Positions 26,805 to 49,993 of a stretch of 64,000 nucleotides of DNA are shown here, piece after piece. A model generated the notes under the pieces. That model was not told where the DNA came from, made no database searches, and saw nothing but the letters and a program-made list of their open reading frames with translations. The stretch comes from an uncultured Halobacteriales archaeon (GTDB taxonomy: Archaea > Halobacteriota > Halobacteria > Halobacteriales > Hikarchaeaceae): the NCBI GenBank assembly GCA_964510865.1, contig CAZEDI010000002.1:8579-72578 (forward strand). The letters are read 5' to 3'. Within the stretch, counting starts at the first letter, position 1, and every line of letters begins with the position of its first letter. The translations under genes and the position numbers were made by a program.

Positions 26805-27240
26805 GCCCGACCACTACACAAGGAGTCACTTGGCTCTTCGTGTGGGAGCAATCGAGCATGCTAGCTCGACAATGTAGAACGGGCAGCCCCTCCGAGTATG
26901 AGCACGCTAGACGGCACCCGGAGGGTGGTGTGGCATGTCAACTGGATCACCCCCCGCGGCCAGATGAAACACAGGAATTATAGGGTAAAGTCTTTCTGAA
27001 GGGGGCTACGATCGCCTCTTTCAGCCTGCATCGCAATGGAACGTCTTCAAGGCTTCAGCGGAATTACCGTACGAAGTAAGAGAGATCGAGCCGGACTCCA
27101 CGACGCCAGCTACCCCGGCGTGATCGGTTTCGATCCAAATCGTCCAAAAATCTTCAAGTAGGGATGGGCCGACACGGGTTTGAACCAAGTCGGTGGTTCC
27201 GGGTCCGGTTTGGGGGTTCTCGAACTGTTCGACTCTCCGG

Positions 27241-28317
27241 TTACAGGATGTCGTGATCATTGGATGGATCCTCCAAGTCCAGGTAGTCCAGGTAGTGTTG
27301 ACGGCGCTGTAGCATGCGCTCGACAGGGCCTTCCTGGTCGTAATGACGCTCGATGACGTCCGGGGTCGCGTTCACTCGCTCGGCAACGATTTCGACCGGG
27401 ATGCCCTTGTTCAGCTGCCAGGTGATCGATCCCGACCGCACCTGGTGGGGCGACCGGGACGATGGGCACTTGCTGGCGTGAGAGTACTCGGTCCACTCGC
27501 AGGTGGGCCGTTCCTTCCCGTGGGGGCAGTCCTCGCGGATACACGGCACCGTTGCCATGTACATCCAGTCGCGGATGGTACCGGTGCTGGGCCGTCCCTG
27601 TTGGGACGTGATCAGGGGCTGTCGTCCGTGATCGTCACGAACGTCGGTACGATGATGCTCGATGTACCGATCGAGCGCGTCGACGTTCTCTTCAGTAAGT
27701 CCGACTGCCCGTTCGCCACGATACTTGTTTTTCAGCGGCGTCCCCGTGTCGGGTCGATGCTGGAAATGGACGAAGCCGATGTCTAGGTCGACGTCACGCA
27801 GATCCAGCGCTCGCAGCCCGCCCATCCGAGCTCCGGTGAACCACGCCATCTCGAGCAGGACCTGTGATCGTTTCCCGAACCACTCGGGATCCTCTCGCAT
27901 GTAGCGAACCTGTGGGACGCCATTCTCTTGCTTGAGCTGCGTCTCATCGACCCAGTCCTCCGCGTCGAGTTCGGGGATCCGAACTGACTCGGCGAGATCG
28001 TCTTCGACGGCGCCGAGTTGCTCCATGTACTCACAGAACTTCCGGAGCGTCCACATCTCGCCCTCCAACGTGGCAGGCTCGATGTCAGCCGCGCGATACT
28101 CGTTGAACTCCACGAGGTCGTATCCTCGGAGATCGCCAGTTACCTCGACTCCGACAGTCTGGCACCACTCGATGAACAGCTTCAGCCGGTAGCGCCAGGT
28201 CTGGATGCTCGAGTCCGAAGCGTCGGCCCGCCTTGCCCGAAGGTAGCGCTCGACGGCGTTGCCGATCGGCAGGTCCCTCGGGTCGTCTGGTCGGTCAGCA
28301 CGCCCTGCCATACTCAC
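27241..28317 (-). CDS. Tyrosine recombinase / phage-type integrase
   Basis: N-terminal SAM-like domain, then the catalytic region with R (GARMGGLRAL), HQVRSGSIT, and ERVNATPDVIERHYD (H-Y). Start is GTG 28317 (GTGA overlap with the upstream stop) or ATG 28311. Confidence 0.9.
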   Translation of the reverse strand: MSMAGRADRPDDPRDLPIGNAVERYLRARRADASDSSIQTWRYRLKLFIEWCQTVGVEVTGDLRGYDLVEFNEYRAADIEPATLEGEMWTLRKFCEYMEQLGAVEDDLAESVRIPELDAEDWVDETQLKQENGVPQVRYMREDPEWFGKRSQVLLEMAWFTGARMGGLRALDLRDVDLDIGFVHFQHRPDTGTPLKNKYRGERAVGLTEENVDALDRYIEHHRTDVRDDHGRQPLITSQQGRPSTGTIRDWMYMATVPCIREDCPHGKERPTCEWTEYSHASKCPSSRSPHQVRSGSITWQLNKGIPVEIVAERVNATPDVIERHYDQEGPVERMLQRRQHYLDYLDLEDPSNDHDIL

Positions 28318-30503
28318 CGGGAACCCTCCGTTCCGCCGTTCGCCAACTTCGCGAGCAGGCGCTCATACGTTTCCTCGACGGTCGCCTCGTCGACGTCGTA
28401 GCCATCGAGTTCGTCGGCGACCAGCTGTCGCGTCGCTGGCTTGATGCTGCCGTCGTTGTTCTTCTGGACGAACCCGGTCTCGACGAGCCCCTTCATCGCG
28501 CTGTAGTGCGTGCTGTTCGGGTTGCCGTCGAGGCCGAGCGCCGACTGCGCCCATTCCTTTTGGCTACTGAGCGTCCGCCCGCGGGACTCGATGTACTTGA
28601 GCAGTTGGAGCTGCCGATCGGAAAGCTGCTCGAAGCGATCGACGACGCGTTCAACAGCTTCCTCCTGGAACTCCTCCAGGATTGCGGCCTGGGGATCAGC
28701 TGACACGTCCGCGTCCCGGTCTCCACTGGAATCGGAGCGGGCCGCCCCCGCATCGGCACGCAACTGCTCGTTCGCCTGGCGAAGCTCCGACACCGTCGCC
28801 TGGAGCTCCGCCACACGCTCGTCCACCACGGCCTCGCTGGGGCCGCCCTCGGGTGCGCTGAGCGGCGCCGCCTCGTACCACGACTGGATGGCCTCGTACT
28901 CTTCCTCGATTTTCTCTGCCTCTTCGACGCGCTCCCTGTAGCCCTGGAGGCGTTCGAGTTCCTGTTCGCTGTCGTCGAGGTCGGCCTCCAGGTCGGTGAC
29001 GCGGGCCTCCTCGGTCTGCAGCTGGTGTTCGAGTTCGCTGATGCGCTCGTTCTTCTGCTCCAGGCGGGCCTGCATCTCCGCGGAGATGTCCTCCTGACCG
29101 CCGCCCTGCAGGCGCTCGGTCAGGAGATCGAGCGTCTCGTCGGCCGTCCGCAGGCGTTCGAGTTCAGCCTCTAACTCCGCGATCTCGGTGTCCTTCTCGT
29201 CGAGTCTCTCCTCGAGGCGCTCGATCTCGCCCCGGCGCTGGGCCTCGCGATCGGAGATCTCCGAAAGCTCCTCGACGAGGTCCTCCCCCACGGACTTGAG
29301 ATCGGGCCGCTCGACGTCCTCCAGGCCGGGAGTAGCGCCGGCGTCGAAGGTCCGCTTGCGATCGAACTGGACGCGCTCGATACCGGCCTCGCTCCAGTCA
29401 CGTGTAAGGAACGCCTCGCCGTCGGCGAGGTCCTGGACGGGATCCTGATACTCCGAACCGAGGATCCGACCCACGACCTTCGTGTCGTTCTCCCAGGTGA
29501 GGCGGTGCCAGACCAGCCAGTTAGCTTGCGTGAGGAAGTCCTTCTTGACGTCCGCGGGGCGCTGGCTCAGCCCGACGATGCCGAGGCCGCGCTTGCGGCC
29601 ACGCTTGCCGATCTGGACGAGTTGCTGGCCGACGTCGTCGAGGCCGCCGCCCTCGGGGACGAACTCGTGAATCTCCTCGACAACCAGGAGGAACGGCTGT
29701 TTCAACTCCTTCTCGCGAACGAACAACGCCTGGGCGGTCGCGCGAACGAGTTCCCGTGCCTCCGTGGCCTGTTCGCCCGGGCCGCCTTCGTCGAGATAGC
29801 CCGAAACGTCGAGGATGATCGGGACGTGTTGCTCCAACGCGAGGGCGGCCAACTTCTCGGCGTGCACGGGGCCGACCTGGACGTCACACTCCGGGTCGGC
29901 GCCGGCGTGCAGGAGCTCGTATTGCTCCTTGAGCCCGTAGTACTCGCCCTCGACGTCGACGACGAGCACGCCGTAACCCGCCGCGAGGAGCTTCTCGACG
30001 ACGACGCTCGCCGTGTTCGACTTCCCGCTTCCACTCTTGCCCAGGATGGCGCCCCGGCCCGTCAGGAGGTCCTCGATCGGCAGCGAGACGGGCTTGCCCT
30101 GGGCCGTCGTCCCGACGGTGATCGCAGTGGTGACCGTCTCGCCACCATCGGTGCGGATATCGGGCGCCTCGGCCTCGGGACAGCATGCCGAGCACGGCCC
30201 GAAGTGCCCACGGAAAACCGACAGCGGCTTCTCGGTCGTTGACCGAGCCCGCGCGAGACGGGGACTGTCCGAGTCGCGGTGATACGTCTTCGAGCCGTAG
30301 GTCCCGGCGGCCCTGGAGACGATGACCATGTCCTCGCCCCCGTCGGTGGCGAGTCGCTGGTCGTGGACCGCCTCCTCGCCGACGAGTTCGGTGTCGGGTG
30401 GTTCGTCGCAGTCGTGAGCGACGAGCCGAGTGATGCTGTCGACGTAGGTATCACAGATTGCGCAGTGGTGCAGGCCACGAACCCGACGGGGTGGTTCAGA
30501 CAC
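28314..30503 (-). CDS. HerA/FtsK-superfamily (DUF87-like) ATPase with N-terminal Cys/His cluster, coiled coil and C-terminal wHTH
   Basis: Walker A GKSGSGKSNT, Walker B FLLVVEEIHEFVP, and LSQRPADV. A long E/L/R-rich heptad region follows, then C-terminal LQLLKYIESRGRTLSSQKEWA. Start set at GTG 30503, which overlaps the upstream stop. The ORF-track N-terminal 82 aa overlap the upstream gene. Confidence 0.8.
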   Translation of the reverse strand: MSEPPRRVRGLHHCAICDTYVDSITRLVAHDCDEPPDTELVGEEAVHDQRLATDGGEDMVIVSRAAGTYGSKTYHRDSDSPRLARARSTTEKPLSVFRGHFGPCSACCPEAEAPDIRTDGGETVTTAITVGTTAQGKPVSLPIEDLLTGRGAILGKSGSGKSNTASVVVEKLLAAGYGVLVVDVEGEYYGLKEQYELLHAGADPECDVQVGPVHAEKLAALALEQHVPIILDVSGYLDEGGPGEQATEARELVRATAQALFVREKELKQPFLLVVEEIHEFVPEGGGLDDVGQQLVQIGKRGRKRGLGIVGLSQRPADVKKDFLTQANWLVWHRLTWENDTKVVGRILGSEYQDPVQDLADGEAFLTRDWSEAGIERVQFDRKRTFDAGATPGLEDVERPDLKSVGEDLVEELSEISDREAQRRGEIERLEERLDEKDTEIAELEAELERLRTADETLDLLTERLQGGGQEDISAEMQARLEQKNERISELEHQLQTEEARVTDLEADLDDSEQELERLQGYRERVEEAEKIEEEYEAIQSWYEAAPLSAPEGGPSEAVVDERVAELQATVSELRQANEQLRADAGAARSDSSGDRDADVSADPQAAILEEFQEEAVERVVDRFEQLSDRQLQLLKYIESRGRTLSSQKEWAQSALGLDGNPNSTHYSAMKGLVETGFVQKNNDGSIKPATRQLVADELDGYDVDEATVEETYERLLAKLANGGTEGSR

Positions 30504-31284
30504 GGCGCACCACCTCCTCGGGATCGACCTTCTCGCAGTGGTTCCCGGCCCGGTCCAGCGGGAACGCCAGCGCCTTGTCGTCGTACTCGCGCTCCCACGG
30601 CGCCATAACGACCCGGTACTCCGTACCATCGGCGTGCTCAATCGTGACACCTGGATCGAGTTCCTCGGTGGAGATACCGAGGGCGATAGTGTCGATGGAC
30701 TCGACGACGCCGTGGGGAACGAACTTAGTCGTAGAACCGGTGTACTCACGCCGTGACGCCTCGATGTCGGACCACCCGGAGCGGGGATCGTACTCAGTCT
30801 CCACGTCCCAGACGTTCCCGCGTCGGCTGGTCGGATCCGCGAGGAGTGTCAGCCCATTCCCGATAATCTCTCCTTCCTCGTGGACTCGAATCCCATCGAT
30901 TTCGGCAACGAGCGTCGTGTCGTCATCGAGTTCTGCCCGGACTGTCTCGCCGACATCGAGGTCCTGCAACTGCGGGTGTCGATTTCCACCCCCGTCGGCT
31001 CTGATAGGCTCACCGAACTCGTCGACGAACTGCCCATCAACAATGTCGTCGACGGATTCCAGTGCCTGGATGCGCCGGTAGGGATTCCGGCTCACTGCGC
31101 CCTGGAACTCCCCGGCACACCACACGCAGTGATCCAGTCCTTGGGCCTCGGCGAATGCCCGTGGCTTTTTCTTGGGATCACCGACGCGACCACACAGTGC
31201 ACCACCGTCGTCCCCGAGGTCGTGATAGACTTCGCCGATGTACCCATTCTTCGAGTGTGCAACAACGATTGGTTCGTCACTCAT
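30496..31284 (-). CDS. Hypothetical protein (element operon)
   Basis: Start at ATG 31284 with an 8-nt overlap (ATGAGTGA) on the upstream gene. Acidic, with Cys pairs ALCGRV / HCVWCAG. Confidence 0.6.
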   Translation of the reverse strand: MSDEPIVVAHSKNGYIGEVYHDLGDDGGALCGRVGDPKKKPRAFAEAQGLDHCVWCAGEFQGAVSRNPYRRIQALESVDDIVDGQFVDEFGEPIRADGGGNRHPQLQDLDVGETVRAELDDDTTLVAEIDGIRVHEEGEIIGNGLTLLADPTSRRGNVWDVETEYDPRSGWSDIEASRREYTGSTTKFVPHGVVESIDTIALGISTEELDPGVTIEHADGTEYRVVMAPWEREYDDKALAFPLDRAGNHCEKVDPEEVVRRV

Positions 31285-31690
31285 CGCGATCACCCCCGAT
31301 CCCGGAGAGCGCGGCTTCGACGGTCTCGCGGTCGAATTCCCGCTCACAGCCGGGCTCCAGGCAGGCGTACTCCCCGTCCCGGAGGTTGCGAAACGGCTCG
31401 TGACCGCAGGGCAGCAGCGTGCCGGCGTCGAGGTTGTGTTTGATCCACTCGTGGACTGCGGTGGGGACCTCGTAGACCCCGACGCGGCGGTCGTCGAGCT
31501 CGGTCTCGCCGACGCGCTCCAGGACGTTTTCTTCGCGGAGCTTCGCGAGGCGGCGCTGGACCTCCGGGGCGAGATCGACGTGGGTGACGCGCTCGCCGGG
31601 TTCCGGGAGTTTGAGCGCGATCGCCCTGTTGTTCGTGAGGTAGCTCGCCGTGGAGTGATAGATGCTGGAGCCCTTGGCGGAACTACTCAT
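31277..31690 (-). CDS. Hypothetical protein with C-terminal Cys/His cluster
   Basis: Start at ATG 31690, overlapping the upstream stop (ATGAGTAG). Contains LPCGHEP...ACLEPGCE. Confidence 0.55.
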   Translation of the reverse strand: MSSSAKGSSIYHSTASYLTNNRAIALKLPEPGERVTHVDLAPEVQRRLAKLREENVLERVGETELDDRRVGVYEVPTAVHEWIKHNLDAGTLLPCGHEPFRNLRDGEYACLEPGCEREFDRETVEAALSGIGGDRDE

Positions 31691-31973
31691 CGTATCCCTC
31701 CAGAATCGTGTCGTAGTGGTCGGTATCGCCCGGTAGCTCTCGGAGGCGGTCGAGGAGTCGGAGCCAGTCCTGGCGCTCCCGGACGTAGACCTGGCCGTTG
31801 TTGAGACGGGCGGCGAGGGTCCGGGAGTCGATCGCCTCGCTCTCGCCGGCCGGGCGATGCGAATAGAACGTCGGGCCCTCGCCGTGCAGGCGAAACTCGT
31901 CACCGGAGCTGCGCTCGACGATCTCGACCGGTGCGGAGCGCTCGACCGGGAAGTCCTCGGGGACCGCACTCAT
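31683..31973 (-). CDS. Hypothetical protein
   Basis: 96-aa acidic ORF whose start overlaps the stop of the upstream gene by 4 nt. Confidence 0.5.
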   Translation of the reverse strand: MSAVPEDFPVERSAPVEIVERSSGDEFRLHGEGPTFYSHRPAGESEAIDSRTLAARLNNGQVYVRERQDWLRLLDRLRELPGDTDHYDTILEGYDE

Positions 31974-32335
31974 GGCTGGCCTCCCGGGGAGTTGTCCGTC
32001 AATACGGATTCCGTGATCTTTCCGTGGGCCACTCCGATTGCGGCCGCACTCTCCTCACCCGGTGCAGACCCTACCCAGTCACCGGAGGGAACCAACTGTG
32101 CCATCTCCTCTTCGAGTGCGTGGATCACCACATCCCATTCTTCCCGTGTCATTTCAACCGCAATCTCGCGGTCCGTACCGCCCGAGGAAGCCCCCTCATC
32201 GAATTCGAGCCGATAGTCACCGTGGTCCCGGTGGTCCATCCAGTCGACCATGTTCACCCACTTTTCACACTCGGCGCACCAGCGCTTGGCCCCGGTTTCG
32301 TCGTACGCGCCGTGGAGACCCTTCTCATCGCTCAT
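31970..32335 (-). CDS. Hypothetical acidic protein with CxxC
   Basis: Start at ATG 32335 (MSDEKGLHGAYDETGAKRWCAECEKW). ATGA overlap with the small ORF upstream. Confidence 0.55.
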   Translation of the reverse strand: MSDEKGLHGAYDETGAKRWCAECEKWVNMVDWMDHRDHGDYRLEFDEGASSGGTDREIAVEMTREEWDVVIHALEEEMAQLVPSGDWVGSAPGEESAAAIGVAHGKITESVLTDNSPGGQP

Positions 32336-32475
32336 GCCGACCACCCCGGTGCCGTCCGGAGTTCGCCACCGATCTGATGGCCACACGGCGCCGCCAGGTG
32401 CGTCGTCGGGCCGGTCGTCGAGATCGCGGTGATCTGCGTCCCGCAGTGGGGGCAGTACTCGGGGCTCCCCGTCAT
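32332..32475 (-). CDS. Small zinc-ribbon-like protein (47 aa), absent from the ORF track
   Basis: Hand translation gives MTGSPEYCPHCGTQITAISTTGPTTHLAAPCGHQIGGELRTAPGWSA. ATGA overlaps occur at both ends (32472-32475 and 32332-32335), filling the only gap in a fully coupled operon. Confidence 0.45.
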   Translation of the reverse strand: MTGSPEYCPHCGTQITAISTTGPTTHLAAPCGHQIGGELRTAPGWSA

Positions 32476-33149
32476 TGGTCCACCTCCCGGGCGGCGGCCT
32501 CGGCGAGCTTCTCACACTGCGTGGCGAGATCGAGCGCCCGCGCATAGCGGTCGTCGGCGTCGTCGGCGAGGGCGCCTCGTTCCAGTAACTGTGTCGCCTT
32601 CGCGTAGAAGTGCGCCGGGCTGTCGAGCGGGTACTGCCCCGGGTTTCGCGCGTTCGGCTCCGGGGGGTCGGGGCGGCCGCCGTCTGCAACGGCATCTCCG
32701 GGTACGTTGCTCAGCTCCATCAGGAGCCGGTTCGCGATATCCGCCGCCTCGGTCCGCGCGACCTGGAGGTCCTCGGCCATGATGGCGTCCTCGAAGTCCT
32801 TCAAGTGAGTCTCGATCGCGTCGATTTGGGCGAGGGGTTCGTCCCGTCGCCACTCGGCGGTCTCGTGCTCGGACTCTTTTTCGTTGATCCGCTCGACCAT
32901 TCGGCGGTCCAGTGTCTGCAGCTCGTAGGCGAGGTCTGCGTAGGGCATCGCCGCCTCCTCGCGACCGCCATCAGGCATCGGGTCAGATGATCGAGACTCT
33001 AAAATTTCCAGCGACAGATCGAACCGGGCGGCTTCGGGCGCCGCCTGGAGCGTGTCAGCGAATGTGTCGAGAAACGCCGCAGCGGCCTGACCAGTTGCCT
33101 GGCCCAGTTCGGCGGGCTCCTCGGTTTCCAGTAACGGTTCGTCCGTCAT
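32472..33149 (-). CDS. Hypothetical acidic helical protein
   Basis: 225-aa ORF with ATGA overlap on the upstream DUF4326 gene. Confidence 0.55.
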   Translation of the reverse strand: MTDEPLLETEEPAELGQATGQAAAAFLDTFADTLQAAPEAARFDLSLEILESRSSDPMPDGGREEAAMPYADLAYELQTLDRRMVERINEKESEHETAEWRRDEPLAQIDAIETHLKDFEDAIMAEDLQVARTEAADIANRLLMELSNVPGDAVADGGRPDPPEPNARNPGQYPLDSPAHFYAKATQLLERGALADDADDRYARALDLATQCEKLAEAAAREVDQ

Positions 33150-33604
33150 TGCTCTCCCTCCCGCACCGGATTATCCAGCCACACGACGCTGCCGTCCTCG
33201 CGGATTGCCACGCCGAGCTGGGTCAGGAACTCCCGAACCTCGGCGCGACCGCCGCGAAGGAAGGCGTCGATCACGTCGAGATGACAGGCGGGTTCTGTGT
33301 CCTCAGCACTGCGACACCAGCAGGCCACGCGCTGCCCGTCGAGGCCGTGAATCGCTCGACGGAACTGCGGATCCATGGCAAGGCGCCCGAGGAAGGTCTT
33401 CGCGAAGCGGGCGATCGCGAGTTCGCGGGGACAGGCGTCCGTGACTTCGTGGGGATTGCCCAGCCAGCCCCGATCGCCGGGGATGGTCGTGCGGACGTTC
33501 GCGCCGTTCGTCCCGCGCCCACCGTAGACGTCGAAGGTGTCCTGGCGGCAGTGCACGACGGCGATGCCTCGCGTCTCGACGGGTTCGGTCTCGGCGGCGC
33601 TCAT
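33146..33604 (-). CDS. DUF4326-domain protein
   Basis: VYGGRG...GWLGNPH...RVACWCRSAEDTEPACHLDVI matches the DUF4326 pattern (GNP ... C-W-C ... CH). Confidence 0.7.
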   Translation of the reverse strand: MSAAETEPVETRGIAVVHCRQDTFDVYGGRGTNGANVRTTIPGDRGWLGNPHEVTDACPRELAIARFAKTFLGRLAMDPQFRRAIHGLDGQRVACWCRSAEDTEPACHLDVIDAFLRGGRAEVREFLTQLGVAIREDGSVVWLDNPVREGEQ

Positions 33605-34092
33605 TCGCCATCACCGTCCTCGGTCCGCTGGTCGTCGATTTCGTAGATCATTTCGCGGTGCTCTGGGATCGAAATCGCGAGCATCCCCTCTTCGAGATCG
33701 CCGTGGAAGTCCCCCGACTCTGGGTAAACGGCGATAATACCGTCGTAGAAGTCGGATTCCGGAAGGCCGTGGGTCGTGGTCTCGAATTCGCCAGTGAGGC
33801 TCGGTGTCCGGACCGTGAACTCCCCAACGAAGCCCTGCAGGAAGTCGGGCATCTCCAGGCCGTTGTCGGTGAGCCGGAGCGTGTCGTCTGGCTCGCGGAC
33901 GGGTCCCGGCTCGCCCTCGGGCTCGAAGGCCTCGTCGGGGTCGGGTGGATTCACGCCTCGACCCTCCCGTATTCGCCGAGGCTGTCGCGCGCGGTCTGCC
34001 AGTCGATGCGTCCTGAGTACGTGGATTTTTGCCCACTCGTGTTGTGTGTCGAAATGGGCGTCGTGTTCAGATTCATTCCCAGGGTCCGGCAC
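33601..34092 (-). CDS. Hypothetical acidic protein, first gene of the integrase-terminated operon
   Basis: 163-aa ORF from ATG 34092. GTG 33954 is an alternative start. ATGA overlap with the DUF4326 gene. Confidence 0.45.
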   Translation of the reverse strand: MPDPGNESEHDAHFDTQHEWAKIHVLRTHRLADRARQPRRIREGRGVNPPDPDEAFEPEGEPGPVREPDDTLRLTDNGLEMPDFLQGFVGEFTVRTPSLTGEFETTTHGLPESDFYDGIIAVYPESGDFHGDLEEGMLAISIPEHREMIYEIDDQRTEDGDGE

Positions 34093-34200
34093 GGCGCCCG
34101 CCCTTCTCCCGAAAATCGCGGGACGTAGGACCCTCCTACCACGATCCTCGAAAGGCGAACGTGTCCGGTAGTCGGAGTATTACACCCCTGGTACTTAATC

Positions 34201-34216
34201 ATTTCCACGCGGAAAT
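34201..34216. promoter_or_regulatory. Palindromic operator candidate ATTTCCACGCGGAAAT
   Basis: Perfect 16-bp palindrome upstream of the wHTH gene 34287..34526 in an AT-rich divergent promoter region. A second palindrome, TCCAATTGGA, lies at 34222-34231. Confidence 0.4.
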
Positions 34217-34286
34217 CAGTCTCCAATTGGAATCTAGTTGACAAGACGAAGGTGTTTTGCAATGGCCCTGTGTGTTCCGGAACAAC

Positions 34287-34526
34287 ATGGCTGGTAGGAA
34301 GCCAACTGTAGACGATGTAGACATTTTGAAGCTGTTTGTTTTGTCCAGCGATCCAGCCTTTACAGCGTCTGAGCTTACGGATGAGCTTGATATGAGCCGG
34401 CAGGGAATTTTGAAACGGTTGGATGGATTGGATGAAGATGGGTTCCTTGAGTCGAAGTTTGTCGGCCCCATTCGGATTTTCTGGATAACGGAGAAGGGGA
34501 AGAGGAAGGTCGAAGCGTCGATCTAA
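34287..34526 (+). CDS. Small winged-helix DNA-binding protein
   Basis: MAGRKPTVDDVDILKLF..DPAFTASELTDELDMSRQGILKRLDGLDEDGFLESK..GP.RIFWIT. It is a paralogue of the convergent gene. Start is ATG 34287 (alternative 34257). Confidence 0.65.
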   Translation: MAGRKPTVDDVDILKLFVLSSDPAFTASELTDELDMSRQGILKRLDGLDEDGFLESKFVGPIRIFWITEKGKRKVEASI

Positions 34527-34738
34527 GGGAGCCAGTAGATCACCGATGGCCCCGCCTTTTTGCGTTTTAGCCGTCCCTCTTCGACAAGAGCATTCAACCG
34601 CCGATTCACCGCCTGCCGAGAAATTGGGAGCGATTCGGCAACTTCTTTCGACGACAGAACAGGATCTGCAGAATGCTTGAATTGGCGAAGTATCTTCTCG
34701 TTGGTCACGTCCTTGACTGATTGTGCCATGTTGGACAC
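34523..34738 (-). CDS. Small winged-helix DNA-binding protein (paralogue)
   Basis: KILRQF..SADPVLSSKEVAESLPISRQAVNRRLNALVEEGRLKRKKAGPSVIYWL. Its 3' end overlaps that of the partner gene by 4 nt. Confidence 0.65.
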   Translation of the reverse strand: MSNMAQSVKDVTNEKILRQFKHSADPVLSSKEVAESLPISRQAVNRRLNALVEEGRLKRKKAGPSVIYWLP

Positions 34739-34755
34739 TGTAGTCTTCTATTATA

Positions 34756-34771
34756 TTTTCCGCGTGGAAAA
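34756..34771. promoter_or_regulatory. Palindromic operator candidate TTTTCCGCGTGGAAAA
   Basis: 16-bp palindrome about 18 nt upstream of ATG 34738, next to aatataat (TATA-like on the minus strand). Its core is the reverse complement of the 34201 site (shared TTCCACGCGGAA). Confidence 0.4.
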
Positions 34772-34891
34772 GTTTTATGGTGGATCCACTCGTGTAACTG
34801 AATACGGCAAACCCGGCTCCGTGGGGTGATTCTTCGCCAGAAATCGCCCGGGTGCAGACACACCCGAGCCGGGTGGTCGTGCAACCAACCC

Positions 34892-35077
34892 ATGAGCACC
34901 TTAGACAACACCGCTCAAAAACGCATCGCCAGCCCACCACGGACGCCCAGGACCGTCGTCGTCGAAGCCGTCCCCGCGCCCTCGCTAACCACGCTCTGTG
35001 CGTTCGCCGAATACGCGGCCGCCCACGACTGCGCCGTCGACGCCGTGCTGGCGGCCTGCCCGGATGGAGTGCGGTAG
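34892..35077 (+). CDS. Hypothetical small protein
   Basis: ATG 34892 (MSTLDNTAQKR...). 61 aa. The stop lies 1 nt before the next ATG. Confidence 0.35.
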   Translation: MSTLDNTAQKRIASPPRTPRTVVVEAVPAPSLTTLCAFAEYAAAHDCAVDAVLAACPDGVR

Positions 35078-35078
35078 G

Positions 35079-35348
35079 ATGGCCGACCGAACCCGACCCG
35101 TATCCGCTGCAGCGTCCGCACCCACGGTGGCGGACGCCCTGGCGGGCCTGATCCCGGTGGCGGCCGCAGACGCGATCCCCGCCGCCGAGGACCCCCGCGG
35201 CGAGCCCGTCGTCGAGCTCGTCCTGCGCAGCGACTGGGATTACCTGCCGGCGACGGTCGTCGAGGTGGCGGCTCACCACGACTTCGCGCCCGTCGAACTG
35301 GGCGCCCGGACGCCCGAGCACCACTACGCGGTGTTCGTCGAGCGATAA
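35079..35348 (+). CDS. Hypothetical small acidic protein
   Basis: ATG 35079 (MADRTRPVSAAAS...HHYAVFVER). 89 aa, tightly coupled to the upstream ORF. Confidence 0.4.
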   Translation: MADRTRPVSAAASAPTVADALAGLIPVAAADAIPAAEDPRGEPVVELVLRSDWDYLPATVVEVAAHHDFAPVELGARTPEHHYAVFVER

Positions 35349-35575
35349 CGCCGAGTGCACCAGAATTGCTTTGCCGCCTGGAGCCCCACGCCACTGCATG
35401 GACCCTGTTCGGGAAATCCTCCTGTCCGAGAACGACGATGGCTCCTGGACTGCGCGAGACCTCGACGCGGAGGCAGCCGCCGAGGGCGACACGCGCCTGG
35501 GGGCACTGGATGCACTCGACGACGTCGTGGGAAACCCGAAGTAAGAAACGTCGCCCGACCTCGCGGCTGCGGCCG

Positions 35576-35824
35576 TCAGCCCCAGAACCCGTCGCGGTGA
35601 CCCGCGTCGATAACCCGTAACTCGTCCGCTTGCTTGTCCCACTCGATCTCCGCGCGGTAGTCGCCAACGCGGAGCTTGTAGGTGTCTCGCCCAGTGAGCC
35701 CGCTTAAGAAGTGTCCTGGATTGTCCCCTGCGTCTTCGAGCTTCTGCCTGAATCGATTTTCGAGCTTGTCGTTTTGTGACTCCAACCAGTCGTTGACGTC
35801 GGGGTGCAACAACACGTCGGCCAT
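35576..35824 (-). CDS. RelE/ParE-superfamily toxin
   Basis: 82 aa. LTGRDTYKLRVGDYRAEIEWDKQADELRVIDAGHRDGF is a typical RelE/ParE C-terminal pattern. Confidence 0.7.
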   Translation of the reverse strand: MADVLLHPDVNDWLESQNDKLENRFRQKLEDAGDNPGHFLSGLTGRDTYKLRVGDYRAEIEWDKQADELRVIDAGHRDGFWG

Positions 35825-35836
35825 GTAGATGCCTCG

Positions 35837-36175
35837 CTACAACTCCACGAACTCGTCGTGATCCGTTGCTCGCCGCTCGTCGGATTTTTCGACTCGATCG
35901 GCCGCGAGTCGCGGCCCGACGAGCGCCTTGTAGGCGACGCCGGCGCCGAACTCGCGACGGGCGATTTTCTCGTCCTCGATCATGCGTTCCAGTCGCGTCC
36001 GGACGGTCTCGGTACTGACGCGGATCTCCCAGTGTCGGGCCAGCGCCTCGGTGACCTCGCCCGCCGAGAGATAGGGCTCGCCGGCCGTGGCCTCGTAATC
36101 GAAGGCCTTGAGAATATCCTGATCCCGGACCTTCTCGTTGAAGCGACCGCCGTCGTCCCGGCCCTGCATGGACAT
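35837..36175 (-). CDS. wHTH protein, putative antitoxin/regulator of the RelE-like toxin
   Basis: It ends 12 nt upstream of the toxin start. LSAGEVTEALARHWEIRVSTETVRTRLERMIEDEKIARRE looks like a wHTH. Start set at ATG 36175 (alternatives 36169 and 36223). Confidence 0.55.
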   Translation of the reverse strand: MSMQGRDDGGRFNEKVRDQDILKAFDYEATAGEPYLSAGEVTEALARHWEIRVSTETVRTRLERMIEDEKIARREFGAGVAYKALVGPRLAADRVEKSDERRATDHDEFVEL

Positions 36176-36266
36176 GTGTACATACACATGTTGCGACCCG
36201 TACACCATAACCGTTTGGTCCATTCCAAACGGACTCTTTTATAGGATTACGCACCACCCCGTGGCG

Positions 36267-36461
36267 ATGTCCGACCTGCATCCACAGGACTGGCTGCTCA
36301 TCGCCGAAGCGCTCGCCGACCACATCGGCGCCGACATTGACTGCCCCCGCGACCAGCGGGCGTGGGATCTCGTCGACGCGATCGGCCGTCGCGAGGGACT
36401 CTCCATCGGGGAGATCCCGCTGCAGACCCGCCCCGCCACCTCGCCGGCCTGGCTCGACTGA
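36267..36461 (+). CDS. Hypothetical small protein
   Basis: ATG 36267 (MSDLHPQDWLLIAEALADHIG...). 64 aa. Confidence 0.35.
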   Translation: MSDLHPQDWLLIAEALADHIGADIDCPRDQRAWDLVDAIGRREGLSIGEIPLQTRPATSPAWLD

Positions 36462-36463
36462 AC

Positions 36464-36760
36464 TCATGGCAGCTGCACCCGTCCGGCACCGACGTGATCG
36501 AGCGCGGTCCGGGCCCATTCCGGCACGTCCGACATGGGCTCGGTCGGGACGAGACTGCCGTGGTGCGTCCTGAGGAAGGACAGCTCAGCGTCGCCACCCC
36601 GGACGATGACTTCCTCGCTGCCATCGGGCTGGCAAAGCGCGTCGACGCAGACCTCGCTGGCCCCTGCTGGGAGCTCGCAGGTCAGTTTCTCGGCACCGAC
36701 GCGGAACGTAATGCCTGGGCGGTCCTCCAGTGGCGTTGGATCGGGCTTGCCGATTGCCAT
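36464..36760 (-). CDS. Hypothetical protein
   Basis: 98-aa acidic ORF convergent with the previous gene. Confidence 0.4.
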   Translation of the reverse strand: MAIGKPDPTPLEDRPGITFRVGAEKLTCELPAGASEVCVDALCQPDGSEEVIVRGGDAELSFLRTHHGSLVPTEPMSDVPEWARTALDHVGAGRVQLP

Positions 36761-37014
36761 ATGCCGAGATGTGCGTACCAGCTAAAGGCGCTGGGGCGGA
36801 TGTGCACGGAAACGACGCTCGCGGGCCGGATTCACCGCGGACGCGCGTAGTATTACGTACACACGCGGGAATTGGGGTGATGAACGGAACTGCACGGAAG
36901 GGTGCTTGCTTGCGATTCGGGGTATTCACGGTTCAGGGGCATTCTGTACTGAGTGCGAATCGCAAAACAGTGAACGGAAACGAATGAATGCCCCCCTCGC
37001 GAAGAATCCACGAA

Positions 37015-37296
37015 TCAAATCACGGCACAACTGGAGAGTGTCAAACCGAGCGTTGAACCTGCCATCAGAAAAGCAATAACGCGCCATAACTTGACCTTTC
37101 TTCTAAATGATTTAGCCTCATCTTGCATCTCAAGAAGCTTGTTATAGATTGCATCAACCTTTTCTTGATCCTCTTTAGTTGCATTGTTAGATAATTCGGG
37201 TGCTCCGTATGACGTCCCATACATAGTACCATAACCGTCCTCCTCCCCAGATTTTGCGGACTCCCAGAGCGTCATAATGTGACGCTTATATTCCAC
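37015..37296 (-). CDS. Small AT-rich-encoded protein with C-terminal TM helix
   Basis: 93-aa ORF in a local low-GC patch, with a C-terminal WRVIAFLMAGSTLGLTLSS anchor. Confidence 0.4.
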   Translation of the reverse strand: MEYKRHIMTLWESAKSGEEDGYGTMYGTSYGAPELSNNATKEDQEKVDAIYNKLLEMQDEAKSFRRKVKLWRVIAFLMAGSTLGLTLSSCAVI

Positions 37297-37367
37297 ACAA
37301 ATAAATTCTCGGCCACTTCAGTTATACGACTCTTCGACGAAATTTCCCCGTAGCAGCAACTCACCGG

Positions 37368-38366
37368 CTAGTCCTCATCCAGCACATACCGACTCCCCCG
37401 CCCCTGGCCCTCCTGGACGAGAAGCCCATAGCGCTCGAGACTCCCGAGATACCGTCGTCGCTGCGCCCGACTCTTCGGCGCCCCAGCCCGTGCCTCGTAC
37501 CGGTCGTGTAACGCTCCCGCGGCGATCTCTCCGGCCTCCCGAACGAGCTCGAACAGGAGGCGCTGGTGGGTCCCCAGCGTGGCGATGTGTCGGTCCCGCA
37601 CCGCCTCCCGCGCCGGCCCCTCGACGTCAGCCACGAGCCCCGCGTCGACGGTCGACTCCCCACGCTCCACTGCAGCCCGGACTGCGTGGCGCAGCATGGC
37701 GATCCCGAGGCGGGCGTCCCCAGCTGCGCGATCGGCGATCGCCCGGAGAGCATTGTCGGTCACCGATCCCTGAAACCCAACCGCAGCCCGTGCTCGAAGA
37801 ATCGTCACCAGCTCGCGCTGGGAGTACTTCGCGAGGTGGAGATGCATCGCGGAGCGCAGTCGCGACCGCACCCGCTCGTCCAGGCCGGCGAGAAAGGCAT
37901 CCATGTCGACGGCAATGCAGATCAGACTGACGCCAGGGCAGTCCCACAGCGCCGCCAGCACGCTCGGCTCAGCAATCGCGTCCACTTCATCGACGACTGC
38001 GACGAACGGCACAGCGAGTGATCTGAGGCGATCGAGCAGGGTTGCCGTCCCGGTCCCGACTCGCCGGAGGTCCCGGGCGTGGCCAGCCGCGTCGAGGAGC
38101 TCGTAGGCGACGGCGGCCGGCGTCGAATCGGCGATGCAGTTCACAGCCCCCCAGCAAACGCCCGTCTCGTCGTCGAGCCGAGCGAGCGCGCTGTGAGCGA
38201 GCGTGGTTTTGCCCGCGCCGGATGGGCCGTGGATGAAGACGGATTCTGCCTGGGCATCGTAGCGAAGCGGGTCGAGCGCGGTCAGGAGGCGGTCGACCTT
38301 GCCCTCGCGATGATGGAGGGTTTCGGGGACGTAGTCCGGTTCGAGGGCCTGGGTGTGTTCGAGCAT
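37368..38366 (-). CDS. cdc6: Orc1/Cdc6-family replication initiator (short form)
   Basis: HREGKVDRLL, Walker A GPSGAGKTT, Walker B VAVVDEVD, sensor region, and a C-terminal winged helix (GSLERYGLLV...GRGSRY). Confidence 0.9.
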   Translation of the reverse strand: MLEHTQALEPDYVPETLHHREGKVDRLLTALDPLRYDAQAESVFIHGPSGAGKTTLAHSALARLDDETGVCWGAVNCIADSTPAAVAYELLDAAGHARDLRRVGTGTATLLDRLRSLAVPFVAVVDEVDAIAEPSVLAALWDCPGVSLICIAVDMDAFLAGLDERVRSRLRSAMHLHLAKYSQRELVTILRARAAVGFQGSVTDNALRAIADRAAGDARLGIAMLRHAVRAAVERGESTVDAGLVADVEGPAREAVRDRHIATLGTHQRLLFELVREAGEIAAGALHDRYEARAGAPKSRAQRRRYLGSLERYGLLVQEGQGRGSRYVLDED

Positions 38367-38764
38367 GGCCGACTGCAGACCAGTATGGTGACCGGACTAA
38401 AAGCTCGCCAGGAGCAGCGCGGAAGTGAAACTGAACCAATATACAGTAGTTCCGCACGTCAGATTCTGTGCATTACATAATTCCATTATACTCGGGAGAG
38501 ATTTTATGAGGTGGTGTATTGCGTATGCTGCCATAATGATGAGGGCATGCCTGAGTACTCAGAACTTCGGAGGATAGCTTCCGCTTGTCCGCCTTTATTT
38601 CGATTGCCACCTAAGGGAGCCATTCCAATTTCAACACAAGACGTAGTCTCAGGATGAATTCCCAACATTGTCCATTTTCCATATTTCTCAACGTTGTAAA
38701 TATGGCTTTTAAAGGAGTAAAAATTGGCAGAAGGTTCTTGGACTAACGGTTATTTGATCCACGT

Positions 38765-40048
38765 ATGACTCTTCCTCCTGAATTTAAGGACATTGACGGA
38801 CGCATAGATTCCATCTTCAAAGATGGAGAATCTTATAGCGAAACCACTGATATCCAACTTCCAGAAACACTGCCGCCCGGGATGACTGACAGTCAGGCAG
38901 AGGAGTGGATGGAACCCATTGAAAATACAGGTGATGATTCACAAAAATACGATTTTGATCCGGTAGAACCTTTTGGGATCCACGAATTCAATGGAGAAGT
39001 GAATTCACGGTTATCAAATAATGTATTTATTGGTATTGATGGGGCCAATTTTGATGTCAAACGGGAGGAGCTTCTACTTCTAAAATCTCGTGGAGTGGGC
39101 TTCTTCTACCCATACACGGCGGAGCTCTCACGATCAAAAGTTGAGCATCCCGCTCGAGCCTTTTACATCATGAAACCGGGACTTCTACGAGACGGTTACG
39201 ACGATTACGTGGAAGTCGAAGATGAAGCTAGCCGTGCAATAGACCTTGAGGCTGTTAGAAATAAACGCTGGATGTTTCTCCGATATGATCGGGATACTAA
39301 CTCTTCTAATCCGTATATGCAAGCAATGGGTGCAAATGTGAAGATGATGCAATTATCTGAAATATGTGCTGCGGATAACGCCTCAGATCGAGCAATCGAG
39401 GAAGGGGTGGAGCCGGCAAATGTTCATTTACTTTTTGATGGGAGTCTCCCACCTAAGTCGGTTGAGCCTAATACATATGGGGCCGAATTCACTCGGTTGA
39501 TCGAAAAAGGCATTAACATATATTCTGTCGTAAAGAGACTATCCAGCTCACGATTGTTCGTTCAGCTACTAAAGGAAAAGGAGGAGATATGTAGAGGTCT
39601 CTTAGATATTGACAACGATGATCTTCAGAGCGATTATATTAATGATACAGCTTTGATCCGAGATTTACTCCAACCAGGCCAGTATACTTCCTTTATTAGG
39701 TATAAAGTAATTGGAAAAACACGAGGAGAGCATATTAACCTGCCAGAGTCTGTGATACCTGCAACAAGTTATGTGATGACTGAGAAAGAGAACATATTTC
39801 GGGTGGAATTCCCCTCATATTACTTAGATGAAAATGGGTCGCATCCGGATGCCCACGATCTGGTGCAGACATTCTTTACCCTCACACATGAGAATAATGG
39901 TGGATTACCGACACCAAATAAGTTCGCGGACAAGCTTGCTTCCTACACTTTAGCCGAAAGGAAATCTGCGAACGCAATTATCGATTCATGGGCAAGAAAT
40001 AAGTTAGGTAACCTAAAACTCAATAAAGTATACGGGGAGCCCCAATGA
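38765..40048 (+). CDS. NurA-like nuclease
   Basis: 427 aa. The ordered motifs FIGIDGANF, HLLFDGSLPP, IYSVVKRLSSS and GLPTPNKFADKLASYTLAER resemble the NurA (RNase H-like) pattern DGS ... DGSL ... K-S-S ... P-x-AD. The stop overlaps the HerA-like start (ATGA). Confidence 0.6.
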   Translation: MTLPPEFKDIDGRIDSIFKDGESYSETTDIQLPETLPPGMTDSQAEEWMEPIENTGDDSQKYDFDPVEPFGIHEFNGEVNSRLSNNVFIGIDGANFDVKREELLLLKSRGVGFFYPYTAELSRSKVEHPARAFYIMKPGLLRDGYDDYVEVEDEASRAIDLEAVRNKRWMFLRYDRDTNSSNPYMQAMGANVKMMQLSEICAADNASDRAIEEGVEPANVHLLFDGSLPPKSVEPNTYGAEFTRLIEKGINIYSVVKRLSSSRLFVQLLKEKEEICRGLLDIDNDDLQSDYINDTALIRDLLQPGQYTSFIRYKVIGKTRGEHINLPESVIPATSYVMTEKENIFRVEFPSYYLDENGSHPDAHDLVQTFFTLTHENNGGLPTPNKFADKLASYTLAERKSANAIIDSWARNKLGNLKLNKVYGEPQ

Positions 40049-41880: not shown

Positions 41881-41889
41881 CGTTGTCCA

Positions 41890-42900: not shown

Positions 42901-42972
42901 TTTGAATTACCAACTGTTCTTGTCGATCTCTTTTCTAGGGCCACTTACATAAGATCTTGGGAAAATAGCGTC

Positions 42973-44196: not shown

Positions 44197-44266
44197 TCGC
44201 TGTCCGAAGTAGAAGGACCTGTGGCATATTTATGTCGCCGCCAGGTCTGCCTGCCTTTGGACTTTT

Positions 44267-46951: not shown

Positions 46952-47054
46952 TACTCTTCATGATGGAATTCATAAACTTAATATCGCGAATAAAATCACT
47001 AATATGGATCAACTATATTATAAGCTCCCCGTTCATTTAGGAACCGATATTAAT

Positions 47055-49992: not shown

Positions 49993-49993
49993 C

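Follow-up and report, generated by a model that had tools for sequence, protein, structure and literature searches.

A convergent pair of winged-helix paralogs

The window, that is, the whole stretch of 64 kb of haloarchaeal DNA analyzed here, contains two small convergent genes encoding winged-helix proteins. Gene A (34287..34526, plus strand) is an open reading frame (ORF) of 79 amino acids with an extra C-terminal helix, and gene B (34523..34729, minus strand, with an ATG start) encodes a 68-residue paralog without this helix. A GTG at 34738 would extend gene B to 34523-34738 (minus strand), but the ATG at 34729 is the more likely start, as it fits the N-termini of the related proteins. The two proteins are 37% identical (BLASTP E = 1e-16), and the stop codons of their genes share the four nucleotides CTAA (34523-34526). 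Both the paralogy and the 4-nt overlap of the 3' ends given in a preliminary description of this DNA are thus confirmed. No ORF lies between A and B, and neither gene has a toxin gene directly downstream.

Pfam assigns A to HTH_11/HTH_20 and B to HTH_24, with MarR_2 also among the matches of the pair. AF2 models confidently predict a winged-helix fold for both proteins, consisting of an H1-H2-H3 bundle and a beta-hairpin wing. The model of A (pLDDT 91) has the order H1-b-H2-H3-wing-H4, and that of B (pLDDT 84) is a complete winged-helix domain with a conserved recognition helix; the recognition helices of A and B have the pattern S-R-Q...R-R in common. In Foldseek searches the two models matched MarR, ArsR, AspA, and TubR proteins at TM 0.75-0.80, the best full-length structural matches of A being AspA of pNOB8 (TM 0.80) and TubR. 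The protein family comprises 777 clusters at E <= 1e-10, and single-chain proteins with two tandem copies of an A/B-type domain exist. The exact sequence of B has no record in the public protein collection, from which B is absent for the source genome, and no match to A or B was obtained by tblastn against phage records.

The element around the pair

The leftward operon (27241..34092, minus strand) runs from a 163-aa ORF (33601-34092) to a tyrosine integrase (27241-28317), which forms its end, and includes an 811-aa HerA/FtsK-like ATPase (28314-30749, minus strand), a DUF4326 protein, and several acidic proteins of unknown function. The rightward operon begins with a 61-aa ORF belonging to no family (34892..35077, plus strand), which showed no homology in BLASTP to the first gene of related loci, of about 100 aa, and continues with further small ORFs up to a DUF7387 gene (35371-35544, plus strand). 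On the minus strand, a third, distant member of the family with a winged helix and a C-terminal tail (35837-36223; hmmsearch E = 1e-7) precedes a ParE-like toxin (35576-35824; a weak match to Pfam ParE_toxin), and the two (35576..36223, minus strand) are probably a toxin-antitoxin pair. An Orc1/Cdc6 homologue identified by Pfam (37368..38366, minus strand) matches Orf8 of the virus SNJ2 (tblastn E = 2e-56) and is 40.8% identical to it over 99% of the length. The location of the pair between the integrase operon and a replication/toxin-antitoxin region, as described earlier, is therefore correct, with the integrase at 27241-28317 to the left and the toxin-antitoxin and Orc1 genes to the right.

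No homologues of SNJ2 Orf3 or Orf2 were found by tblastn over positions 27000-38500, and a 98-aa ORF (36464-36760) near the Orc1 gene resembled neither SNJ2 Orf7 nor anything in phage records. No structural proteins were recognized when the leftward operon and the 38.7-51 kb region were scanned with the general Pfam and PHROGs profiles. The 33-37 kb region had no match by DNA similarity in plasmid and phage records, and direct repeats revealed no convincing att site or element border. No partition NTPase (ParA/TubZ), adaptor, or ParB gene was found in Pfam scans of the neighbors of the pair or in the annotated plasmid loci described below.

Mirrored dyads and proposed outward promoters

Upstream of each gene lies the same 14-mer, TTTCCACGCGGAAA, a 5-4-5 interrupted inverted repeat reading TTTCC-ACGC-GGAAA at its copy before gene A. 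This copy, O-A1 (34202..34215, plus strand), and its mirrored counterpart O-B (34757..34770, minus strand) are separated from the ATG codons of A and B by 71 nt and 27 nt, respectively, so the distance from site to start is unequal. Perfect 16-bp palindromes had been proposed at these positions; ATTTCCACGCGGAAAT and TTTTCCGCGTGGAAAA in fact pair at 7 of 8 positions, as the center ACGC/GCGT is not self-complementary. The notion of a shared site upstream of each gene holds in that the sites are identical and mirrored, the site itself being an inverted repeat with arms of 5 bp (TTTCC/GGAAA) around a 4-bp spacer. Also borne out is the claim that the 12-bp cores are reverse complements of each other: TTCCACGCGGAA occurs in exactly two copies in the window, one per strand, and so has the same orientation with respect to both genes.

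Across the 64 kb, the perfect dyad TTTCC-N4-GGAAA has no occurrences other than those at 34202 and 34757, and Markov-simulated sequences contained a mean of 0.08 and a maximum of 1 per window. In an IMG/VR scan, the exact 14-mer gave scattered single matches at the level expected by chance for the size of the collection. A weaker site on the A side that the preliminary description does not mention, O-A2 (TCTCCAATTGGAAT, 34220..34233, plus strand), follows O-A1 by 18 bp and has two mismatches to the dyad; its core, TCCAATTGGA, is a perfect 10-bp palindrome. A third 14-mer may be present at 34238-34251. The segment enclosed by the flanking 19-nt inverted repeat (89%) is 541 bp long and of lower GC content.

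Each dyad is accompanied on its outer side by a TATA-like hexamer at a distance of 2 nt. The hexamer next to O-A1 (ATTAAG, 34194..34199, minus strand) is the proposed TATA box of the leftward integrase-operon promoter, and that next to O-B (TTTTAT, followed by GGTGG; 34773..34778, plus strand) the proposed TATA box of the rightward promoter. Transcription would then start near 34170-34173 (minus strand) and near 34800-34803 (plus strand), respectively. We infer a functional TATA role for these hexamers, and the TATA and BRE assignments are putative, being made by resemblance and by analogy to SNJ2.

In the relatives, the unit dyad-N2-3-WTTAWG-TG(G) is conserved on the left side in all loci, and the arrangement dyad-(A)G-[TTTTAT/ATTTAT/TATTAT/ATTAAT]-GGTGG is conserved on the right, so that the grammar dyad-N2-TATA-G(G)TG points outward on both flanks. 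The outward reading of the dyad-TATA-G(G)TGG unit in 16 related loci and in SNJ2 suggests that the two outward operons are probably the main targets of the dyads and that autoregulation is probably a by-product. On the inner side of O-B, AATATAAT (34750..34757, minus strand), centered about 25 nt from the ATG at 34729, had been described as a TATA box for B. The element is indeed present, and a B promoter giving a leaderless mRNA from this ATG is a plausible prediction, but AATATAAT is not conserved in the relatives. In most of these the dyad lies 15-21 nt from the start of B, a gap too short for an inner TATA box.

A predicted three-way-junction leader on the rightward operon

Between the proposed rightward promoter and the ATG at 34892 lies a conserved three-way-junction element (34802..34885, plus strand) with a closing stem and two hairpins, which is probably a structured 5' UTR. 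Its structure was derived by hand and then turned into covariance models; RNAalifold on a plain MAFFT alignment had found just 3 pairs. A covariance model built from other loci matches 34802-34885 at E = 4e-6, and a second model does so at E = 1e-13. In the alignment of leaders, 99% of cells pair and compensatory changes occur in 13 of 27 pairs, compared with 34-50% paired in slid controls, and the minimum free energy is -44.6 kcal/mol (z = -4.5). Rfam contains no family for this leader.

The canonical leader is on the B side in all 17 loci that could be oriented. The model also matches integrase-side leaders of two plasmids that carry A only; against left leaders of loci with the pair it reaches E >= 0.2 at best, and the window's own left leader is not among its matches.

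Related loci and operator classes

Convergent, overlapping pairs of this kind occur in at least 16 sequence-distinct haloarchaeal loci, which come from metagenomes, Halorientalis persicus, and seven plasmids, including Haloarcula pNG100 and pNG400. The orthologues of A in these loci are 43-57% identical to it, and B-type orthologues are present in at least 15 loci. A genome scan gave one locus, and an IMG/VR scan for related loci none. The genes overlap by 4-43 nt in all loci, leaving no room for a terminator between them. Sequence comparison indicates that A and B are old paralogs whose pairing predates the divergence of the elements. In LSV-48N, where a convergent gene pair was considered as a parallel and rejected, the two genes are not paralogs.

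Every locus carries a dyad of its own, present on both flanks as mirror-image copies, and the variants include TTTCC/GGAAA, TTTAC/GTAAA, TTGTT/AACAA, TTGCG/TGCAA, and TTTGC-N5-GTAAA. The flanking repeats are weaker than in the window, with agreement at 10-13 of 14 positions. In nine related loci the dyad is at a fixed offset of +473 from the start of A and at no other place. On the A side, the 71-nt distance to the start of A recurs in the locus designated L001, and the tandem 14-mers of the relatives are separated by 4-nt linkers, giving an 18-bp period; L018 and L001 have three of them. The perfect dyad is confined to loci that carry B and is not found in A-only loci. A constant position combined with a varying sequence is what would be expected of an operator that co-evolves with a protein encoded by the element.

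The recognition helices track operator class. Both TTGTY/AACAA loci carry [ST]QQ.[AS]Y in A and in B, and L071 has TRQWA in both proteins; in L001 the recognition helix differs in B alone, and both dyads are changed (TTTAC/TTAAC). Co-variation of the recognition helices of A and B within loci was not significant in a permutation test (P = 0.086) and is suggestive only.

Gene content around the pair also varies. Homologues of SNJ2 Orf3, 48-55% identical to it, occur in the leftward operons of five loci (L020, L068, L070, L072, and L074). In five others, B is replaced by a B-like gene with a downstream ORF, which has a RelE/ParE toxin annotation in L069 and L073 and no annotation in L028, L031, and L035.

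Comparison with SNJ2 and other regulatory systems

SNJ2, a betapleolipovirus, encodes the repressor Orf4, which acts at the operator of the integrase promoter PInt, together with HicAB, Orf7, and Orf8 (Orc1) (Chen et al. 2023, PMC10123103). Deletions and point mutations have shown that the TATA box drives PInt and that a palindrome mediates repression by Orf4, the palindrome being required for repression and dispensable for promoter activity; the length of its spacer mattered and the spacer sequence did not (PMC10123103). The layout of PInt is CGTACT-N4-AGTACG-AG-TTTTTATT-GTGC. The window resembles SNJ2 in having a small winged-helix gene with a C-terminal helix (A, corresponding to orf4 in position) divergent from an integrase operon, a palindrome that is interrupted by a 4-nt spacer and lies 2 nt from the putative TATA box of that operon (grammar CAC.ATAAA-N-dyad), a long leader on the operon, and a probable toxin-antitoxin pair and Orc1/Cdc6 close by. 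An hhalign comparison of SNJ2 Orf4 with the A/B family gave a probability of 77% (E = 2e-5) over 66 columns that include the C-terminal helix, a weak indication of homology. SNJ2 has one repressor and one operator region, whereas here the unit is duplicated and mirrored, and the paralog B lies beside a second outward operon. Furthermore, the arms of the dyad are 5 bp long here and 6 bp in SNJ2, no Orf7, Orf3, or pleolipovirus structural genes were detected in the window, and the likeness to Orf4 appears at the profile level alone.

Bacteriophage regulators and partition proteins offer other points of comparison. The genes for CI and Cro of phage lambda, which are not paralogs, are divergent and share a single operator region, and coliphages 186 and P2 have face-to-face promoters whose transcripts overlap in their 5' portions. 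The locus would share with these phages the use of two small regulators with shared operators to decide between two transcription programs of a mobile element, where convergent transcription can add interference; it differs from them in that the regulators are paralogs, the genes overlap at their 3' ends, and each gene has its own copy of the operator. AspA of pNOB8 and TubR are centromere-binding winged-helix proteins that bind palindromic or phased plasmid sites. A resembles them as a winged helix with a C-terminal helix, but no partition ATPase or GTPase genes lie nearby, and the sites overlap putative promoters.

Among haloarchaeal regulators, the PhiH1 repressor and PhiH1 repressor-like proteins are winged-helix repressors, a role that is proposed for A and B. 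As dimers they are proposed to bind a pair of interrupted palindromes ahead of the gene that encodes them (summarized in PMC10123103). The PhiH1 repressor-like protein of Haloarcula marismortui (PDB 3B73) matched A/B marginally by profile (E = 0.002) and was not within the Foldseek top 50 for A or B, which are candidate members of this family at most. The operators of Tebi-SV1 and Tebi-PV1 also have 5-bp arms, with a TATA box proposed to be bidirectional and a conserved self-pairing 5' UTR ahead of an outward operon (PMC13612827). The window has in common with these viruses the arm length and a probable structured 5' UTR before an outward operon. It is unlike them in that each virus has a single repressor and the operators are shared by two co-infecting viruses, not by two paralogs.

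A probable mirrored repressor/operator module

Judged by analogy to SNJ2, the best reading is that the locus serves as the control center of a haloarchaeal integrative element of the SNJ2 type, either a provirus or a plasmid. We consider it reasonably probable that this module is a duplicated, mirror-image arrangement of repressors and operators, keeping both arms of the element silent and controlling its own expression. Each regulator gene faces away from one large outward operon, and a dimer of the element's own winged-helix protein or proteins would bind TTTCC-N4-GGAAA. As the dyad is 2 nt from the putative TATA box of each outward promoter, its outer half-site would cover the BRE position, and the bound dyad would keep TFB/TBP or RNA polymerase off both promoters. 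This would silence the integrase/ATPase operon on the left and the operon behind the three-way-junction leader on the right, and an element with both arms silenced would be quiescent. Because the same dyad is found upstream of each regulator gene, with extra tandem sites at A, the regulators would be autoregulatory as well. That the outcome is repression, and which of A and B would bind at which site, is inferred; archaeal transcription can also be activated from a site immediately ahead of the TATA box. The mobile-element switch put forward in the preliminary description is retained insofar as a regulatory switch is the most reasonable reading, with the sites probably tied to the outward operons first.

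A true bistable toggle, where A and B shut off each other's promoter or compete at shared dyads as CI and Cro do, is possible but in our view unlikely. Collision and antisense effects of the convergent transcripts would reinforce such a switch, whose two states would express the left and the right arm, respectively. The identical site upstream of both genes would suit it, as would the 4-43 nt overlap without terminator room in all loci, the retention of the paralogs as a pair since before the elements diverged, and the two or three tandem sites at A as opposed to one at B, which would permit different occupancy thresholds. Moreover, an Orf7-type antirepressor was not detected, so another exit from repression would be needed. 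The identity of the operators and the similarity of the recognition helices would also be compatible with two regulators acting at the same sites to opposite effect. However, two operators that are identical leave no basis for reciprocal specificity, the pattern S-R-Q...R-R is retained in both recognition helices, and the conserved geometry links the dyads to the outward TATA boxes and not to the regulators' own promoters. As mutual repression, one of the two possibilities raised in the preliminary description, requires two specificities and the sites are identical, a toggle would need competition, differential affinity, or convergent transcription. In its fullest form, which we likewise hold to be rather improbable, A and B would be competing paralogs on locus-specific dyads, forming a CI/Cro-like decision circuit derived from a duplicated repressor. 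Each of its two mirror units would combine a regulator and its operator with an outward promoter and a structured leader. The units would be coupled by convergent overlapping transcription, and the circuit would choose between the integration/transfer arm and the rightward, probably replication-related, arm in a widespread family of haloarchaeal plasmids and proviruses. Less probable again is a division of labor with one protein as the operator-binding repressor and the other as its modulator, acting as a dominant-negative or heterodimer partner or as a titrating anti-repressor. B lacks the C-terminal helix found in A, SNJ2 Orf4, and AspA-like proteins, both dyads of L001 are changed along with the recognition helix of B alone, perfect dyads are present in B-carrying and not in A-only loci, and the tandem two-domain proteins imply that two such domains can act as one unit. 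Yet B is complete and confidently folded with a conserved recognition helix, and A and B have changed in parallel in two operator classes.

It is very improbable that the dyad is no operator and consists of back-to-back BRE-like elements (GGAAA on each strand) read by host TFB in divergent core promoters. GGAAA does resemble the haloarchaeal BRE CGAAA (cited in PMC10123103), and in the window the B-side dyad is flanked by two TATA-like hexamers, the inner AATATAAT and the outer TTTTAT. Against this, the 15-21 nt between dyad and B in most relatives exclude an inner TATA box, the half-sites differ wholly among loci (AACAA, TGCAA, GTAAA), which makes them unfit for a host BRE, and the SNJ2 palindrome can be dispensed with for promoter activity and not for repression (PMC10123103). 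A plasmid centromere formed by the phased sites, with A as an AspA/TubR-type centromere-binding protein, is in line with the best full-length structural matches of A, AspA (TM 0.80) and TubR, the 18-bp period of the tandem 14-mers on the A side, and the frequency of the module on plasmids. We nevertheless regard it as highly unlikely, since neither the window nor the annotated plasmid loci have a ParA/ParB or TubZ gene beside the pair, the sites are on putative promoters, and the module is also found in integrated elements next to integrase operons. Finally, the mirrored 14-19-mers could be the terminal inverted repeats that delimit a small cassette, mobile or invertible, carrying A and B, given the 19-nt inverted repeat (89%) around a 541-bp segment of lower GC and the presence of an integrase. 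This we consider the most improbable explanation, as there is neither a target-site duplication nor a transposase, the leader is on the B side in 17 of 17 oriented loci with no inverted variant seen, and the repeats are weaker in relatives (10-13 of 14).

Implications for haloarchaeal mobile elements

To our knowledge, the control of lysogeny, induction, or maintenance in archaeal mobile elements is understood in detail for essentially SNJ2 alone. The module described here appears to be related to the control system of SNJ2 but duplicated in design, and it is conserved over integrated elements and many haloarchaeal plasmids, including the long-sequenced pNG plasmids of Haloarcula marismortui. 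With defined 14-bp operators, two proteins of 70-80 aa, and natural specificity variants, it is experimentally tractable, and the conserved structured leader without an Rfam family is a second outcome of the analysis. If the CI/Cro-like circuit were true, the operator classes would correspond to immunity or incompatibility groups, and the three-way-junction leader would be a second regulatory layer. Should A and B compete at shared operators, the module would be a compact natural toggle that could be used in haloarchaeal genetics.

Convergent winged-helix paralogs and their relatives

The GC content of the window is 60-69%, a haloarchaeal composition, and dips to 53% at 34-35 kb, where two small genes converge. 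Gene A (34287-34526, plus strand) is an ORF of 79 aa, and gene B, on the minus strand, encodes 68 aa when read from an ATG (34523-34729). This start is likelier than the alternative GTG (34523-34738) because the N-termini of relatives agree with it. The proteins share 37% identity (BLASTP E = 1e-16), match generic winged-helix families in Pfam, and are modelled confidently by AlphaFold as H1-H2-H3-wing folds, with one extra C-terminal helix in A which is absent from B. The convergent winged-helix paralogs of the preliminary description are thus borne out, as is their 3' overlap, the two stop codons sharing CTAA at 34523-34526. The exact B protein, from either start, is not in a collection of 15 billion proteins, in which A of the same contig is present; gene B has probably been left unannotated in the source genome. 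Several plasmid gene tables likewise lack B-type genes.

A word-indexed database contained few close relatives of A and none of B. A profile covering both types retrieved 23 proteins, and an exhaustive search gave 777 cluster representatives at E ≤ 1e-10, indicating that the winged-helix domain family of A and B is large. Related metagenome loci, a Halorientalis persicus locus, and 39 haloarchaeal plasmids were scanned with a family HMM, and convergent A+B genes overlapping by 4-43 nt were found in at least 16 sequence-distinct loci. Carriers include Haloarcula marismortui pNG100/pHMA33 and pNG400 as well as plasmids of Haloarcula, Halorientalis, and Halobaculum. Between loci, A-type proteins are 43-57% and B-type proteins 27-51% identical, and A and B share 20-41%, which indicates that the A/B duplication is old and that both copies have been kept.

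Three related loci (L028, L031, and L035) and plasmids pNG500 and pHsi540 have a B-like gene with a further ORF downstream, which in the two plasmids carries a RelE/ParE toxin annotation; this operon converges on A. In more distant loci A occurs without a partner and in some cases forms the N-terminal domain of a longer protein; it is again divergent from an integrase operon. The 34.7-kb metagenomic contig ORCS01000382 (L014 and L028) carries two modules, an A+B pair and an A with a B-like gene and its downstream ORF. Some proteins (P0024, P0025, P0032, P0051, and P0054) contain 2-9 tandem copies of the winged-helix domain per chain; chains of 162-195 aa carry two and resemble covalent pseudo-dimers.

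Mirrored dyads flank the gene pair

The 14-mer TTTCCACGCGGAAA, a 5-4-5 interrupted inverted repeat, lies at 34202-34215 (plus strand) on the A side and at 34757-34770 (minus strand) on the B side. These are the only two occurrences of a perfect TTTCC-N4-GGAAA in the 64 kb, where 0.08 is expected. The preliminary description had placed perfect 16-bp palindromes here; the coordinates were correct, and the 16-mers pair at only 7 of 8 positions because their centre, ACGC, is not self-complementary. It is this asymmetric centre which confirms the further claim that the site has the same polarity relative to both genes. The A side has a weaker second site, TCTCCAATTGGAAT, at 34220-34233, which lies 18 bp downstream from its first. 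A perfect 10-bp palindrome, GTTCCGGAAC, occurs at 34274-34283, 3 nt upstream of the A start codon, and may be an additional operator at the beginning of A; the motif also occurs within the A-side site array of Halobaculum magnesiiphilum (L074).

Nine related loci have TTTCC-N4-GGAAA on the B side, at a fixed offset of +473 relative to the A start; it occurs at no other place in them, and its 4-bp centre is freely variable. In other loci different dyads occupy this position, and each is repeated on the A side in mirror orientation: TTTAC/GTAAA in L001 (where the distance to the A start codon, 71 nt, equals that in the window), TTGTT-N4-AACAA in L021, TTGTC/AACAA in L074, TTGCG/TGCAA followed by TGATTGG in pNG100, and TTTGC-N5-GTAAA in L071. 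The A side carries two to three 14-mers with 4-nt linkers, giving an 18-bp period. Constant position combined with locus-specific sequence is the pattern shown by operators of element-encoded regulators, and the mirrored dyads behave like operators in this respect. Recognition helices track operator class, being [ST]QQ.[AS]Y in A and B of both TTGTY/AACAA loci, TRQWA in both proteins of L071, and SRQG.. (A) or SR[QT]A.N (B) in TTTCC loci. This suggests that A and B both recognize the same site, co-variation of the A and B helices within loci not being significant by permutation (P = 0.086).

Putative outward promoters resemble that of SNJ2

Both flanks of every locus follow one outward grammar: dyad, 2-3 nt, A/T hexamer (TTTTAT, ATTTAT, TATTAT, or ATTAAG), and G(G)TG(G). 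In the window, the hexamers are ATTAAG leftward (34199-34194, minus strand) and TTTTAT rightward (34773-34778, plus strand). The integrase promoter PInt of the haloarchaeal virus SNJ2 shares this layout (CGTACT-TCCT-AGTACG-AG-TTTTTATT-GTGC). There, the hexamer was experimentally shown to be the TATA box, the winged-helix protein Orf4 represses PInt and requires both palindrome arms, the length of the 4-nt spacer matters for repression and its sequence does not, and the transcript has a leader of ~114 nt (PMC10123103).

Gene A sits where orf4 does in SNJ2, and the family profile can be aligned with Orf4, C-terminal helix included, across 66 columns (probability 77%). Further parallels in the window are a tyrosine integrase that ends the leftward operon, a probable toxin-antitoxin pair, and an Orc1/Cdc6 41% identical to SNJ2 Orf8. 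Homologues of SNJ2 Orf3 (48-55% identity) occur in leftward operons of five relatives, and several SNJ2 components such as Orf3, Orf7, and structural genes were not found in the window. From these parallels, the A-side dyad is read as a putative operator of the integrase/ATPase-operon promoter and the B-side dyad as that of a second, rightward promoter.

The gap between the B-side dyad and the B start codon is only 15-21 nt in most relatives, so the B promoter there needs a TATA box beyond the dyad. It probably uses the outward hexamer bidirectionally, as proposed for the single TATA box of Tebi-PV1 (PMC13612827), which would put the dyad between TATA box and B start, a repressing position. 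The leaderless B mRNA previously suggested from the inner AATATAAT is possible in the window, and the feature is not conserved.

A probable structured leader precedes the rightward operon

Between TTTTAT and the rightward ATG at 34892, a covariance model places a three-way junction at 34802-34885 (plus strand). Built solely from other loci, the model finds the window copy at E = 4e-6; the z-score of the fold is -4.5. Bases pair in 99% of cells of the fitted alignment, versus 34-50% in a slid-partner control, with compensatory changes in 13 of 27 pairs. No Rfam family matches the window junction. The model also matches integrase-operon leaders of two small A-only plasmids (L077, 8753-8826, and L078, 5785-5861; E = 5e-6 and 3e-4). 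In many pair loci the left leader folds with this junction topology as well but scores only E ≥ 0.2, and the left leader of the window gives no match. Self-pairing 5' UTRs precede the integrase operons of Tebi-SV1/PV1, LN27-SSV, and SNJ2 (PMC13612827).

The first rightward gene in L010-L020, L067, L068, L070, and L076 encodes a conserved ~100-aa protein with the motifs NPQER, LFLGVDG, HYWDSYE, and RGWDVGP, for which no Pfam family was found. The 61-aa ORF at 34892 in the window has no detectable relationship to it.

Other features of the window

A third, distant winged-helix paralog, encoded by a 128-aa ORF and bearing a C-terminal tail, immediately precedes the gene of a ParE-like toxin (35576-36223, minus strand), and the two resemble a toxin-antitoxin pair in which the antitoxin is a winged-helix protein. 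An operon of this kind replaces B in pNG500, pHsi540, L028, L031, and L035. The integrase operon includes a gene (28314-30749, minus strand) for a HerA/FtsK/VirB4-like P-loop ATPase of 811 aa, whose tail is a long acidic coiled coil; this suggests that the element has a DNA-translocation function (transfer or packaging). A low-GC island at 38700-49600 (38-52% GC against about 65% around it) encodes NurA-like, HerA-like, and methyltransferase-like proteins, several proteins of no known kind, and a Y-family DNA polymerase. The island, beside the Orc1 gene, is probably a block acquired separately, perhaps serving defence or repair. Copies of a 20-nt direct repeat (95%) flank it, at 38056-38075 in the Orc1/Cdc6 gene and at 49784-49803 in the ORF at 49742-51040, and may reflect either gene paralogy or the edge of an insertion.

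Regulatory models and ALTERNATIVES

We lean toward a mechanism in which dimers of the element's own winged-helix protein(s) would sit on the dyads and keep TFB/TBP or polymerase from acting at the two outward promoters, so that the integrase/ATPase arm and the rightward arm would stay silent, with A and B also autoregulated. A true toggle, in which A and B would compete at shared sites with convergent transcription, seems unlikely to us. Somewhat less likely still is that a single paralog binds the dyad and the other acts as modulator or heterodimer partner, for which speak the missing C-terminal helix of B, the confinement of perfect dyads to B-carrying loci, and the existence of natural single-chain proteins with two tandem domains.

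Readings in which the dyads have another role are given little weight. That they are back-to-back BREs is improbable, and a partition site is more improbable again, even with AspA and TubR as the best full-length structural matches of A. Least probable of all is that the pair is a mobile or invertible cassette.

Silencing of both arms by winged-helix dimers would follow a repressor/operator principle for which PhiH1, SNJ2, and Tebi provide precedents; neither sequence nor structure establishes that A and B belong to the PhiH1-repressor-like family. We found no description in the searchable literature of a mirror-image duplicated paralog module, its plasmid conservation, its operator classes, or its leader. 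What is new is the mirror-image duplication, giving two convergent paralogs, each with its own putative operator copy and outward operon, and a pair that is widely conserved on haloarchaeal plasmids, is split into operator classes, and is accompanied by a leader element.
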